Below, piece after piece: positions 26,601-29,600 of a stretch of 64,000 nt of DNA. The position numbers are program-made. Position 1 is the first letter of the stretch; the number at the start of each line of letters is the position of its first letter. The stretch is taken from assembly GCF_030013205.1 (NCBI RefSeq), contig NZ_CP122648.1. One strand, written 5' to 3'. The DNA is from Escherichia coli (GTDB lineage: Bacteria > Pseudomonadota > Gammaproteobacteria > Enterobacterales > Enterobacteriaceae).

Positions 26601-29600
26601 AAAGGATTTTTTGCTCGATCGCTTTAATTTTATACATTACTGATAACGGAAATTTTTTTGCCCGTTGACAGTTTTTGTTCTCCGGGGCTATATTCCTCAC
26701 ACAACCGCAAAATCGGTTGTCGGGATTGGCGTCTCGGATAACATCACAACGCATAGCCGCGTTTGCGGTTTTTTTTGCGTTAAGCATTGCCACATTCGCA
26801 TTATGGTGGGGCGTGCAGGGGCGGAGAAATCCGCGCCGGGTTTTGTGATGACCGGTTACGCCAACCCTGTACGTCTCACCACCTCCCTGATTGGCGTCAG
26901 AGGTGGTGATCATCCAATTAATTGGAGTCATCACATATGAATACAGCTATAACTTTTTCTAACGAGTCACCAAAAGTCTTTTTCAAAGATGGTCGCCTGG
27001 TTACCACCTCTCAAGCTGTTGCCGACTACTTCGATAAACAACATAAACACGTTTTAGCTAAGATTGACGCACTCGACTGCTCTCCCGAATTTACATCAGC
27101 CAACTTTTCGGCCGATGTTCAGACTGTCGAAATTGGCAACGGCGCAGAACGTGAATCACGATGCTACCTGATCACAAAAGACGGCTTCATGTTCCTCGTA
27201 ATGGGATTTACTGGCAAAAAAGCAGCCAGACTAAAAGAAGCTTACATTGAAAAATTTAACGCAATGGAAGAAGAACTCCACAAACGTCCTCCTGCAGCAC
27301 AAAACTCCCCCGCCCCAAATAATGGATGTGCATTACTGATCCACTTCGATAAACACGGTCAGGTCGACTTCACGGAAAAAGTCCCCGCCGATGCGATGGT
27401 ATGCACTCTGGAACGGTTTAAATTTTATCTGGAGCAACACGGCTGGATCGTTGCCCGTAAAGAACAACTGGTGGAACGGTTGATGCGGTTTTAATGCATG
27501 CAAAACCCCGGATGATCACCGGGGTTAATTTTATCGAGCGTGATTGCCGCTAATCGCCATCTCTCTGATTGAGCGCAAATCCTCCAGATTATTCAGTTCA
27601 TCCTTCATCTCCCGCTGACGCTGATAAATCTCGTCATTGCGATCGACCTGAGCCTGCGCCATTGCTGTCGCCAGTTCTTCCAGTTCCGGCATTGACAGTT
27701 TCACCTGTTGATTATCGGCGTCACCCCACGCCATAACGTCCCGCGCCGTGTCAGATTTCGCCGCCATTACTACCGGATAAAGACGGGCCATTGAGTCGGG
27801 GCCAGCGTTCCAGGTGCGGCCGTTCCATTCGAACGTGAACGGCTGTGCTTCCTGTTCTGTACGCCATGCCTCGATTTCCCGCTTTTTGGCATCCTTTGCT
27901 GCTGCGATAAGTTCAGGCGTGACGGTGAACGGGGCGATTTCACCCCATTTGCCGCTCTGTAACTCTTCCCAGATGCGCTGGCCTGTCGGGGCGCTATCGT
28001 CCTGCATGGCGGTATACGGGACGAATTCCGTTTCACCTTCAAATAACACCTCGCAGTCAACCGCACCATTTTCGAGATAATGGGCGTTTCTGATGCCTTT
28101 TACCGCTCTGATTTTCATGTCTTATTTCCCCGTTACTCGATGCGCACAAACAGACAAATGCGGCCTTCATCGCCATACGAATTACTGAATCCAGAAAGCG
28201 CCTGATAGCGACCGGGAAAGCTGAATGCCCCGGCACCTCCGGCAGAAACGCGTGGGGTGGAAACATATGAGCCTGCATCATTAATTGAGCAGGTGATAGT
28301 TACCGGACCGAGTCGCGACCCCGGTACAATGTCACCCAGCCCAATTTTGATTGCCTTATCGCCAGCCGCCGTTCCCTGATAGACCGCCAGAACAGGCACT
28401 CCCACTGCCGGGTATTTGTAATATGAGCCTGAGCCCGCCATCCTGGACAACAGGTACGCCAGTGAATCTCCGTCGTAAATGACGGGACTTACTGTTGCAT
28501 TCCAGTTATTTCCACTCCAGCGGTAAGTCAGGCGATGAATACTGTGCTCACCTTCGTAATACTGGTTGTAAAACACCGCCGTCTTGAATTTGCGTATTGC
28601 ATCTGATTCGTCGTTATCAAAGGGGGACCACATCACATCAATGATGCCGTTAAATTTCGTGGTGCCAGCCAGCAGCGTGGAAGAGTCCGCAATACTGACC
28701 GCATAACGCCCCGGCGTGGCCTCTTTCAGCCATTCAGCAAAATCGGCCTGTCCGTTAAATGCCCGAGCGTCGGTGCTGGCAAATGCCTGACCGAATCCAT
28801 ACATGCCGGACAGTGCCAGCCTGCCCGGTGTGCGGTCGCGGATATCGCTCTGGGGTTCCATCGTCGCAGCCGCTTTCAGCTCAAGCTCCGTGCGCATGGC
28901 CTCAGGCGTGTCCAGTGCCAGTAATGCGCGGGCTTTTTCTGACAGCTGCGCCAGTAAAATCCGGCCCTCTGCGCTGAAATAAGGCAGCGTGTTTTCTTCC
29001 GGTGTTATTTACGCTGTAATGTCAGCGGCACACGTACAAGTATCCCCGAAATCTCCTGTGCCACACGTTGCAGAATGAAGGTAAACAATTCCGTTTCCAG
29101 CACCAGCCCTTCTTCACGGGCATTTTTCAGCTCCTGTGCGTCAGCCTGTGCTTTGGTGAGCCGGTAGCGTTCATAGTCAATGGTGCCGGGTTGTAAATCT
29201 GATTCTGCAGCCGCACGCAAATCTTCCAGTTCTTTGCGGAGCTTTTCGTTTTCGATATCAGTTTCTCTCTGCGCGTACCACTGAATTGCCATCGCGGTAT
29301 CAAACACAGATTCAACACCCTTGCTACCTCCGGAGACGCAAGATAGCCCCTGAGACTGCCAGCGTTCAATCGTTCGCGGATCCACGTTGAAAATTTCGGC
29401 AAGTTTCTTTTTGTTAACTTTCACAATACATTTCTCTATCAAATACAGGGTCCGACATGAAAACGCTTAAAATGCCCTTTTTCGGGTGTTTTCATGTCGG
29501 ACCTTTTACTGATGTGATGTCAGAAAAAACAAATAGTTATGCGCGAGAAGTACCGACATGCTTTTTCCTGAAAAATTTTCATAAATAGCGCGTTTTTGCG

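Follow-up and report, generated by a model that had tools for sequence, protein, structure and literature searches.

How is the synthesis of an antirepressor-like phage protein controlled when its gene lies behind an RNA-rich leader at the end of a defective prophage? The question is raised by rha, a gene in a 64,000-nucleotide (64-kb) stretch of DNA from a porcine Stx2e Escherichia coli, referred to here as the window. The prophage is a defective stx2e element inserted in ompW, and the module that includes rha lies at its end. A preliminary description of the locus had pointed to a near-consensus promoter, an early short hairpin followed by eight T's, and a 9-bp stem just 5' of the Rha-like Shine-Dalgarno (SD) sequence, and had suggested either a short sRNA or a riboregulated leader. 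All three elements are there (Table 1), and the module is very probably an RNA switch of the prophage immunity type, like P1 immI and Gifsy-1 isrK. This kind of switch, an IsrK small RNA together with a C4 antisense RNA, has already been described in phage P1 and in Salmonella Gifsy-1, and the module is in that sense real but ordinary.

Table 1. Elements of the rha module and their positions in the window
Feature	Position	Strand	Details
Sigma-70 promoter	26665-26694	+	-35 TTGACA 26665-26670; 18-bp spacer; -10 TATATT 26689-26694; 11/12 consensus positions
IsrK-family short RNA (terminated leader)	26701-26776	+	Rfam RF01394
isrK hairpin 1	26701-26720	+	
isrK hairpin 2	26721-26736	+	loop holds site a1 GATTGGCGTC 26724-26733
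Site b1 CATCACAA	26742-26749	+	single-stranded, isrK leader
Intrinsic terminator	26755-26776	+	stem AGCCGC/GCGGTT 26755-26770; eight T's (U's in RNA) 26769-26776; terminator scan
C4-family antisense RNA	26799-26886	+	Rfam RF01695; long basal stem with two hairpins
45-codon ORF, equivalent of Gifsy-1 orf45	26803-26940	+	crosses C4, a2 and b2; AUGA overlap with rha start
Site b' UGUGAUGAC	26844-26852	+	large 12-nt loop of C4
Site a' ACGCCAA	26858-26864	+	single-stranded junction of C4
9-bp-stem hairpin	26877-26908	+	arms caccacctc 26877-26885 / gaggtggtg 26900-26908; perfect pairing
Target site a2 GATTGGCGTC	26889-26898	+	tip of hairpin 26877-26908
rha translation-initiation region	26903-26939	+	SD GGAG 26924-26927; AUG 26937-26939
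Target site b2 GUCAUCACA	26927-26935	+	between rha SD and AUG
Rha-family regulator gene rha	26937-27494	+	185 aa; Pfam PF09669 Phage_pRha, 94.7 bits
Terminator-like hairpin	27504-27526	+	directly past rha stop; 8 pairs, 6 G-C; weak T-run after

A promoter with at least 11 of the 12 consensus positions is matched once in the 64-kb window, against about 1.1 matches expected in simulated sequence. The promoter score by itself is no better than chance, and for this reason conservation is used as the evidence. Both hexamers are kept at an equal distance from isrK in the homologues, in Gifsy-1 PisrK and in P1 P1c4, and in 14 of 14 related phage loci the promoter is followed by isrK and then, about 25 nt further on, by C4, upstream of an antirepressor-type gene. 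Judging from the Rfam scores, this shared layout and the compensatory changes in the hairpin, the ensemble of promoter and RNAs is beyond chance. Transcription would start at about 26701, where the Rfam isrK model begins. The match to that model (RF01394; 26701-26775, model positions 1-77) scores 72.2 bits, where the gathering score is 50 (E 1e-13), and RF03163 (c4-a1b1) scores 43.8 bits, slightly under its gathering score of 46.7. The terminator stem, with a folding energy of -7.7 kcal/mol, starts 54 nt past the presumed transcription start. The features of the isrK family are present: a sigma-70 promoter and a Rho-independent terminator of its own, with the 45-codon ORF and rha downstream on the same strand. 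The short sRNA that had been suggested is, by homology and covariation, a member of this family, and by homology some transcription would read through the terminator into the 45-codon ORF and rha.

Between the terminator and the 9-bp hairpin lies an 88-nt element that is absent from the preliminary description, a full-length match to the C4 family (model positions 1-87; 75.9 bits against a gathering score of 45, E 3e-13). Its minimum-energy fold (-47.4 kcal/mol) is the Rfam consensus structure; structure prediction, which had been proposed as a check, also yields the terminator and the hairpin that carries a2. In the C4 RNA, a' and b' are predicted to be unpaired with probabilities of 0.74 and 0.62, respectively, and these sites are complementary to the region of the rha ribosome binding site (RBS), a' to a2 over 7 bp and b' to b2 over nine contiguous bp. 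The idea of a riboregulated leader is likewise borne out by homology and covariation, the leader containing a C4 RNA whose loops are complementary to the rha RBS sites. Unrestricted duplex folding gave energies of -53 and -39 kcal/mol, values that ignore intramolecular structure and were used solely to locate complementary segments. When C4 was folded as a dimer with the leader, and IsrK with C4, neither intermolecular pairs nor a gain in energy resulted; this outcome is uninformative, as loop-loop kissing is beyond the method. The loop of isrK hairpin 1 was considered as another C4 target, its GCAAAAUC being able to pair with GGUUUUGU of the C4 loop in the window; other modules are without this complementarity, the P1 record places a1 in hairpin 2 and b1 in the linker, and the pairing is taken as coincidental.

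Rather than a generic leader hairpin, the 9-bp stem is a conserved hairpin on which a2 is presented. It folds at -14.9 kcal/mol, with an inner stem of 3-4 bp and UUGGCG displayed in the loop, and its 5' arm doubles as the 3' strand of the C4 basal stem. In an RNAalifold consensus of 24 variants the hairpin has 11 pairs, five of them with compensatory changes. The sequence GATTGGCGTC occurs just twice in 64 kb, as the a1 and a2 copies, and a search of the window for further a+b target pairs found none. The hairpin ends 16 nt upstream of the SD, and in most modules its 3' arm is complementary to the segment immediately 5' of the AUG. In the window, a local RBS hairpin is predicted in which GUGGUGAU (26903-26910) pairs with GUCAUCAC (26927-26934) around an inner palindrome, UCCAAUUAAUUGGA (26913-26926), leaving the SD and b2 with probabilities of being unpaired of only 0.04-0.07 and 0.13-0.25, respectively.

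Do these complementarities matter? The comparison covers 37 distinct related modules with 12 a' types and 24 b' types. (A pattern scan of IMG/VR returned many unrelated matches; 56 of 113 candidate modules were parsed, and one mis-parsed module was then discarded.) Among the 37, the mean complementary runs between cognate sites are 6.5 nt for a':a1, 7.0 for a':a2, 8.1 for b':b1 and 9.1 for b':b2, compared with 3.7, 3.9, 4.4 and 5.7 nt between non-cognate sites, about 1% of which reach the cognate median. For a1:a', 92.4% of the alignment cells are paired against 66.1% after shuffling, a level that none of 500 shuffles reached, controls slid out of register give at most 48%, and compensatory changes are found in six of the seven pairs. 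For a':a2 the figures are 86.3% against 62.6% (0/500), with slid controls at no more than 46%; this score is conservative, being lowered by the P1-type and GTGGAAA-type rows of the alignment (A3), which are misaligned at a' or a2. Changes in a' and b' are mirrored in the target sites a2 and b2 across 34-37 modules. The b type of the window is unique within the set, yet its b1, b' and b2 mutually agree. That the three sets of sites change together in 37 modules is strong comparative evidence that the a and b pairings are functional. The genes that follow the sister modules encode ORF6N+P22_AR_C, Bro-N and ANT proteins.

The P1/P7 immI region (c4-icd-ant1/2) has the same order on one strand: promoter, a1, b1, a weak terminator-like hairpin, C4, an a2 hairpin overlapping the C4 3' end, and b2 at the next RBS. 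The C4 RNAs of P1/P7 and of the window have the same fold. What is said of P1 here draws on the GenBank annotation and the literature; the GenBank record annotates a1, b1, c4, a2, b2, icd and ant and states "repression of icd ant translation". The P1 C4 is reportedly freed from its primary transcript by RNase P to act as a trans-acting repressor (Citron and Schuster 1992; Hartmann et al. 1995). From phage to phage the site sequences vary yet remain mutually complementary, and this underlies the heteroimmunity of P1 and P7 (Citron and Schuster 1990, summarised in PMC12197685). The window departs from P1 in several ways. The first gene past the RNA is of the Rha family, whereas P1 has icd and then an ANT-domain antirepressor; no C1 operator is evident here; the leader has a strong eight-U terminator, which places it in the isrK family; and the element is a lambdoid Stx2e prophage, P1 being a plasmid prophage.

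The Gifsy-1 locus, isrK-orf45 (STnc1160)-anrP-isrJ, whose IsrK is an Hfq-binding sRNA, shares with the window its promoter hexamers, the Rfam isrK family, the 45-codon ORF with its AUGA overlap, and the a type (UUGGCGU with ACGCCAA), whose sites are equally far from the transcription start in the two loci. In both, b2 is at the downstream RBS, and in the alignment the Gifsy-1 b2 abuts the anrP SD. In Gifsy-1, orf45 is translated, and anrP translation rises more than 100-fold when IsrK is provided in trans, an effect lost in IsrK a1 mutants (PMC4825925). Compensatory mutant pairs have been published for G28-C162 and G31-C159 (Hershko-Shalev et al. 2016, PMC4825925); the corresponding positions in the window, G26728 and G26731 opposite C26862 and C26859, fall on a1:a'. 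On the other hand, the b type is CAUCACA here and AUCACCG in Gifsy-1, and the downstream protein is a pRha protein here, whereas the N-terminus of STM2616/AnrP resembles Stx-phage ORF6N-type Ant proteins. There is no antQ immediately upstream, the module lying instead at the prophage end beside an ompW fragment, and an Rfam scan of the window gave no isrJ match. (isrJ, which is present in Salmonella phage SW-37, is part of the Gifsy-1 locus architecture and does not define the isrK family.) The immunity system of satellite phage P4 (CI RNA; seqA, seqB, seqC), which the Gifsy-1 authors cite as a structural homologue of IsrK/STnc1160 (PMC4825925), resembles the scheme proposed for the window in that an RNA processed out of an untranslated leader base-pairs with complementary stretches on either side of it. 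P4 differs in the outcome: transcription of the replication genes ends prematurely, rather than translation being blocked at an RBS.

By homology with P1 and Gifsy-1, the switch would work as follows. A single constitutive-looking sigma-70 promoter would drive a 75-nt leader (a1, b1), C4 (a', b'), the a2/b2 copy and rha. Transcripts that stop at the eight U's would release a short IsrK-like sRNA; those that read through would yield a C4 precursor joined to the rha mRNA. Once processed, C4 would use a' and b' to pair with a2 and b2, so blocking ribosome entry at rha, the RBS of which may additionally be closed in cis by its local hairpin. The short leader RNA could act as a target mimic, its a1 and b1 binding a' and b', thereby antagonising C4 or remodelling the read-through transcript and turning rha translation on. 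Translational coupling through the 45-codon ORF, which overlaps the rha start, may also play a part, as in Gifsy-1. Rha is a putative antirepressor, and the module would by analogy be the entry point to antirepressor synthesis. Some points can be raised against the RNA switch. The SD and b2 are predicted to be already paired in cis, which questions the need for C4, and the P1 model, in which C4 represses, differs from the Gifsy-1 model, in which IsrK activates via orf45.

Could the window instead harbor a purely structural switch of the Gifsy-1 type? The read-through transcript would then be locked by cis pairing between the leader and the C4 region, and the short RNA, acting in trans, would open it and thereby allow translation of the 45-codon ORF, coupled to that of rha; C4 would never be a separate trans repressor, and a2 and b2 would not be targets. 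The published Gifsy-1 genetics fit this scheme (PMC4825925), and the window shares the 45-codon ORF with its AUGA overlap. However, such a switch does not require the covariation of a2 and b2 with a' and b' that is seen in every module. The amino-acid sequence of the ORF is not conserved, and in other modules the frame either stops after 8-41 codons or is fused to the next gene; with the ORF broken in many modules, coupling cannot be general. Moreover, the Gifsy-1 double mutants G28A+C162U and G31A+C159U gave 224 and 327 units against 4 for the wildtype, as expected if a' must match a2 as well. A switch of this purely structural kind is unlikely, although it keeps an appreciable share of the probability.

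Another doubt concerns whether the immunity-type switch still does anything. Because the prophage is defective, there may be nothing left for it to control, and the module could be an inert relic, intact in sequence and without a role. The prophage has indeed lost its morphogenesis genes; an IS481 element is present, as are truncated fragments of terminase and tail fibre. Against this reading, the promoter keeps 11 of its 12 consensus positions, each of the two sites still matches in all three copies despite a b type unique to the locus, and the rha ORF is intact. The best-matching genomes, which are mostly from pigs (H14 is from a human), have a 1-kb segment with 100% identity, and 444 genomes cover at least 80% of it. 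The relic reading is on these grounds rather improbable.

In RefSeq, the same region is a protein-coding gene. PGAP calls a CDS at 26665-26940 for a 91-aa "ash family protein", and Pfam PF10554 (Phage_ASH) matches it with 53.8 bits, above the cut-off. For this CDS to be real, its TTG start would have to fall within the -35 hexamer of the only promoter, and its frame, which contains an intrinsic terminator, is interrupted or shifted in most homologues. Conservation in the region follows the rules of RNA pairing, and two curated RNA models, isrK and C4, span it. The protein-coding reading is rejected as very unlikely, and the annotation is probably an artefact. For the window, the main value of the analysis is a correct annotation, with two regulatory RNAs missing from RefSeq where the sequence is labelled as protein; rha itself is named there "Rha family transcriptional regulator". 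Several phage records fuse the RNA region into the antirepressor CDS.

The preliminary description had likened the locus to the Sar RNA of phage P22, a cis-antisense RNA of the opposite strand that overlaps the ant RBS. Like the RNAs considered here it limits antirepressor synthesis, but the reading that an opposite-strand small RNA runs across the rha RBS, for which the analogy itself (an antirepressor-like gene behind an RNA-rich leader) is the sole argument, is almost certainly wrong, since there is no minus-strand promoter-like site in 25500-28000, no Sar family match at E values up to 10, and every conserved element is on the plus strand, the gene's own. The proper precedents are P1/P7 c4 and Gifsy-1 IsrK, each of which lies on the strand of its target and is co-transcribed with it.

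What does the prophage immunity-type switch suggest beyond the window? In this family, specificity is encoded by three covarying sites with many a and b types, a compact and testable statement, and the comparison points to how the P1 and Gifsy-1 models might be reconciled. Tentatively, and short of being probable, the IsrK loci and the P1-type c4 loci may be one three-site device, consisting of a decoy (a1/b1), an antisense (a'/b') and an RBS target (a2/b2). Gifsy-1 STnc1160/"orf45" would then be the C4 repressor of the antirepressor RBS and IsrK an anti-antisense decoy, and the a and b sites would reassort independently. At least 12 a' types and at least 24 b' types make up 31 combinations, and two modules on a single contig have b in common but differ in a. 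If this reading is true, lambdoid and Stx prophages would possess a combinatorial RNA "immunity code" that decides which co-resident prophages silence or release each other's antirepressors. In the window strain, the code could extend to Q and stx2e expression: stx2e lies behind the Q antiterminator in this prophage, which is carried by E. coli strains mostly from pigs, and if Rha acts like Gifsy-1 AnrP, the RNA switch could influence toxin expression. Past rha, the terminator-like hairpin is probably the end of the operon.

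The leader of rha, whose product (ORF start at 26937) contains a Phage_pRha domain, belongs to two catalogued RNA families whose mechanism has been characterised, and is in that sense already known and of low surprise. In an Rfam scan of the region, with matches judged against each family's gathering score, isrK and C4 antisense RNA were both matched over their full length; a 43.8-bit match to RF03163 ("a1, b1 targets of C4"), a little short of that model's threshold of 46.7, falls on the first 40 nt of isrK. The near-consensus promoter, the early hairpin with T8 and the 9-bp stem before the Rha-like Shine-Dalgarno sequence (SD), all reported in the preliminary description, are indeed present when 26300-27300 is read, the stem hairpin lying 16 nt 5' of the SD (GGAG, 26924-27). 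Given the isrK match, the early terminator is that of an IsrK-type sRNA. Between it and the 9-bp hairpin lies the 88-nt C4 RNA, which had been overlooked and which RNAfold folds into the Rfam consensus structure (-47.4 kcal/mol). The window holds a single promoter match of at least 11/12, this one, against about one expected by chance in 64 kb; the promoter score by itself is unremarkable, and its significance stems from the RNA elements downstream. The suggestion of an sRNA or riboregulated leader is supported by the Rfam matches, site complementarity and covariation. The proposed analogy with the P22 Sar RNA was wrong in kind: neither an antisense promoter (minus strand, 25500-28000) nor a Sar match (E up to 10) was found.

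Features of the rha leader and other RNAs in the window
Feature	Sequence or extent	Position	Strand	Basis or location
STnc180 sRNA		3777-3979	-	Rfam, 201.8 bits
trp operon leader		17952-18045	+	Rfam, 91.6 bits
sigma-70-like promoter	TTGACA, 18 bp, TATATT	26665-70, 26689-94	+	consensus scan, 11/12 positions
isrK (RF01394)	full length	26701-26775	+	Rfam, 72.2 bits (gathering score 50)
a1	GATTGGCGTC	26724-33	+	loop of isrK hairpin 2
b1	CATCACAA	26742-49	+	single-stranded linker before terminator
terminator	G+C-rich hairpin into eight T's	26755-70, T's 26769-76	+	sequence reading and consensus scan
C4 antisense RNA (RF01695)	full length	26799-26886	+	Rfam, 75.9 bits (gathering score 45)
45-codon ORF	conserved AUG in C4 5' strand to AUGA overlap with rha start	from 26803	+	sequence reading
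b'	UGUGAUGAC	26844-52	+	large loop of C4
a'	ACGCCAA	26858-64	+	junction of C4
9-bp stem	caccacctc with gaggtggtg, perfect	26877-85, 26900-08	+	sequence reading
a2	GATTGGCGTC	26889-98	+	tip of the 9-bp-stem hairpin
b2	GUCAUCACA	26927-35	+	last G of SD through 2 nt before AUG
sok RNA, with hokD		38220-38387	-	prophage

The sites are named after phage P1, whose GenBank record lists a1, b1, c4, a2, b2, icd and ant. In the window, a' is complementary to a1 and to a2 over 7 bp each, and b' to b1 over 8 bp and to b2 over 9 bp; the 10-mer GATTGGCGTC occurs nowhere in the 64 kb beyond its a1 and a2 copies. The loop of isrK hairpin 1 (26707-26714), GCAAAAUC or, in a second class, UAUAAAGC, is also strongly conserved across homologues, and no conserved complement to it was found in C4 or the leader.

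Related modules bear out the pairing. By blastn, 14 diverse phage loci were recovered, from Stx1, Stx2a and Stx2c phages and from Yersinia, Klebsiella and Salmonella phages, and all 14 have isrK followed about 25 nt later by C4, both on the same strand as the antirepressor-type gene that lies downstream. IMG/VR was searched for more with a pattern in the invariant 5' stem of C4, outside the recognition sites, and parsing left a set of 37 distinct modules, in which 12 a' and 24 b' sequences make up 31 combinations. In all 37 of them each site's three copies match one another, and the mean complementary run in cognate versus non-cognate pairs is 6.5 versus 3.7 nt for a':a1, 7.0 versus 3.9 nt for a':a2, 8.1 versus 4.4 nt for b':b1 and 9.1 versus 5.7 nt for b':b2; only about 1% of non-cognate pairs attain the cognate median. 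Formal pair counts were made on a 34-sequence alignment, with 500 shuffles and slid columns as controls. For a1:a', 92.4% of cells are paired, against 66.1 ± 2.0% when shuffled (0/500) and at most 48% when slid by 1-3 columns, and six of the seven pairs show compensatory changes; for a':a2, the figures are 86.3%, 62.6% (0/500) and at most 46%, even with some of the rows misaligned. This clear three-way covariation, with its many reassorting specificities, is worth keeping. No other module in the set has the window's b type (CAUCACA with UGUGAUG), yet all three of its b sites carry it, which argues that the locus has been kept functional.

The gene that follows differs among modules (pRha, ORF6N+P22_AR_C, Bro-N or Bro-N+P22_AR_C, and in P1 icd and then an ANT protein), and b2 overlaps its SD or start codon in every case, so that the RNA module behaves as a cassette in front of antirepressor-like genes. 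One IMG/VR contig (L053) has two complete modules, separated by 1 kb (2308-2551 and 3312-3556), and the ORF6N-type antirepressor genes that they precede are paralogues of each other; the modules have b' in common (GUCCUUUUCAG) and differ in a' (AGUUCCAA and AGUGCAAA), suggesting that a module was duplicated and that one specificity site then diverged.

Alignment of the window with Gifsy-1 and P1 brings existing genetics to bear. Gifsy-1 shares with the window the promoter hexamers, the a type, the distances from the transcription start, the a2 hairpin and a b2 site (AUCACCG in Gifsy-1) abutting the anrP SD. There, a fraction of transcripts passes the IsrK terminator, the region downstream of IsrK gives rise to the stable processed RNA STnc1160, and anrP translation rises more than 100-fold with IsrK in trans, an effect lost in the IsrK mutants G28A and G31A (Hershko-Shalev et al., PMC4825925). 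Helix b-I, proven by the compensatory pairs G28-C162 and G31-C159, is required for "structure A", which is translationally silent (PMC4825925). With the start set at 26701, these pairs become G26728-C26862 and G26731-C26859, exactly a1:a' pairs, and this mapping of Gifsy-1 mutants onto P1-type sites is likewise worth keeping. The double mutants fell short of wild-type silence (224 and 327 units versus 4; PMC4825925). In our own reinterpretation, this would fit a prediction of the three-site model, because the mutated a' no longer matches a2. The authors likened the Gifsy-1 locus to P4 CI/seqA, a2 and b2 being absent from their description (PMC4825925), and a 2025 review handles IsrK and c4 as separate systems (PMC12197685).

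Beyond the observed elements, family membership, complementarity and covariation, expression from the single promoter would yield a short decoy RNA (a1, b1) by termination and, by read-through past the terminator, a longer transcript in which the C4 precursor is joined to the rha mRNA. The precursor would be processed by RNase P, as is known for C4 of P1. C4 would then bind a2 and b2 and block the ribosome at rha, and the P1 GenBank record on C4 reads "repression of icd ant translation". The short RNA, by binding a' and b', would antagonise C4 or remodel the transcript, allowing rha to be translated as in the Gifsy-1 genetics, and Rha would presumably act on the prophage repressor circuit.

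The 9-bp-stem hairpin is kept in all modules, and presents a2 in its loop as isrK hairpin 2 does a1. Among 24 variants, RNAalifold predicts 11 hairpin pairs, five with compensatory changes, and both sides of the inner three pairs are changed in 14, 9 and 3 sequences. Its 5' arm, CACCACC, doubles as the 3' strand of the C4 basal stem, and one homologue alters all three stem partners jointly (ATGGCGG, CGCCACC, GGTGGCG). Its 3' arm, GGUGGUGAU, is in most modules complementary, G-U allowed, to the 7-8 nt immediately 5' of the start codon (mean run 7.0 nt, against 5.3 nt in shuffled leaders); in the window, pairing is possible between GUGGUGAU (26903-10) and GUCAUCAC (26927-34). The SD is almost fully paired in the RNAfold prediction (probability unpaired 0.04-0.07), C4 attached or removed alike. 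With modest statistical support, the C4 stem, the a2 hairpin and the RBS hairpin may form a series of alternative helices, similar to an attenuator, whose default state would leave rha untranslated. Overlapping the rha SD is a perfect palindrome of 14 nt, TCCAATTAATTGGA (26913-26926), which is absent from the other modules compared; as RNA it forms an inner hairpin hiding the SD, and as DNA it might just as well bind a protein.

RefSeq annotates no RNA at the isrK/C4 region, and instead reads protein there: a 91-aa "ash family protein" (WP_001296031.1, 26665-26940, + strand), which matches Pfam PF10554 at 53.8 bits over aa 9-83 (nt 26689-26913). This CDS spans exactly isrK, C4 and a2. Since its frame is unconserved in homologues, its start lies in the -35 hexamer and it contains the terminator, we take the call to be a conserved RNA mistaken for a protein; the correction at 26665-26940 is worth keeping, and the Pfam/NCBI ash family may largely be a translation of conserved RNA. 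The 45-codon ORF has the same geometry as Gifsy-1 orf45, with its AUGA overlap. In other modules the frame either ends 8 to 41 codons in or continues into the gene that follows, and the window and Gifsy-1 peptides are mutually frame-shifted in the middle, so that the amino-acid sequence is not conserved. From these comparisons, any role would come from translation itself, and coupling cannot be general to the family. Several phage genomes have a deposited "antirepressor" or "Rha protein" CDS extended upstream through C4 and isrK (comparison loci L008 832-1695, L011 532-1683 and L012 497-1654; 1720a-02, PhiR63_1, ST64B sb41); their conserved AUG chances to share the frame of the gene.

The module lies at one end of a defective prophage of about 22 kb (approximately 26355-49340) inserted in the 3' end of ompW, with a 3' ompW fragment at 26355-26480 and the intact gene near 48.7-49.3 kb. 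The prophage carries stx2eAB behind a Q antiterminator, three tRNAs (two scored as tRNA by Rfam, one labelled "tRNA-OTHER" by PGAP), RusA, exo, xis, int, hokD/sok, an IS481 element, a SIR2-family protein and dicA/dicC/dicB; structural genes have been lost, and a terminase small-subunit fragment adjoins a tail-fibre fragment. Of 5,426 complete genomes, 444 cover at least 80% of segment 26480-27500 of this E. coli window, and the best-matching ones, mostly from pigs (K_EC180, O139:H1 P15-25 and many ETEC isolates) and including one human isolate, are 100% identical to it. STnc180 and the trp leader are ordinary chromosomal context upstream of trpEDCBA-yciGFE.
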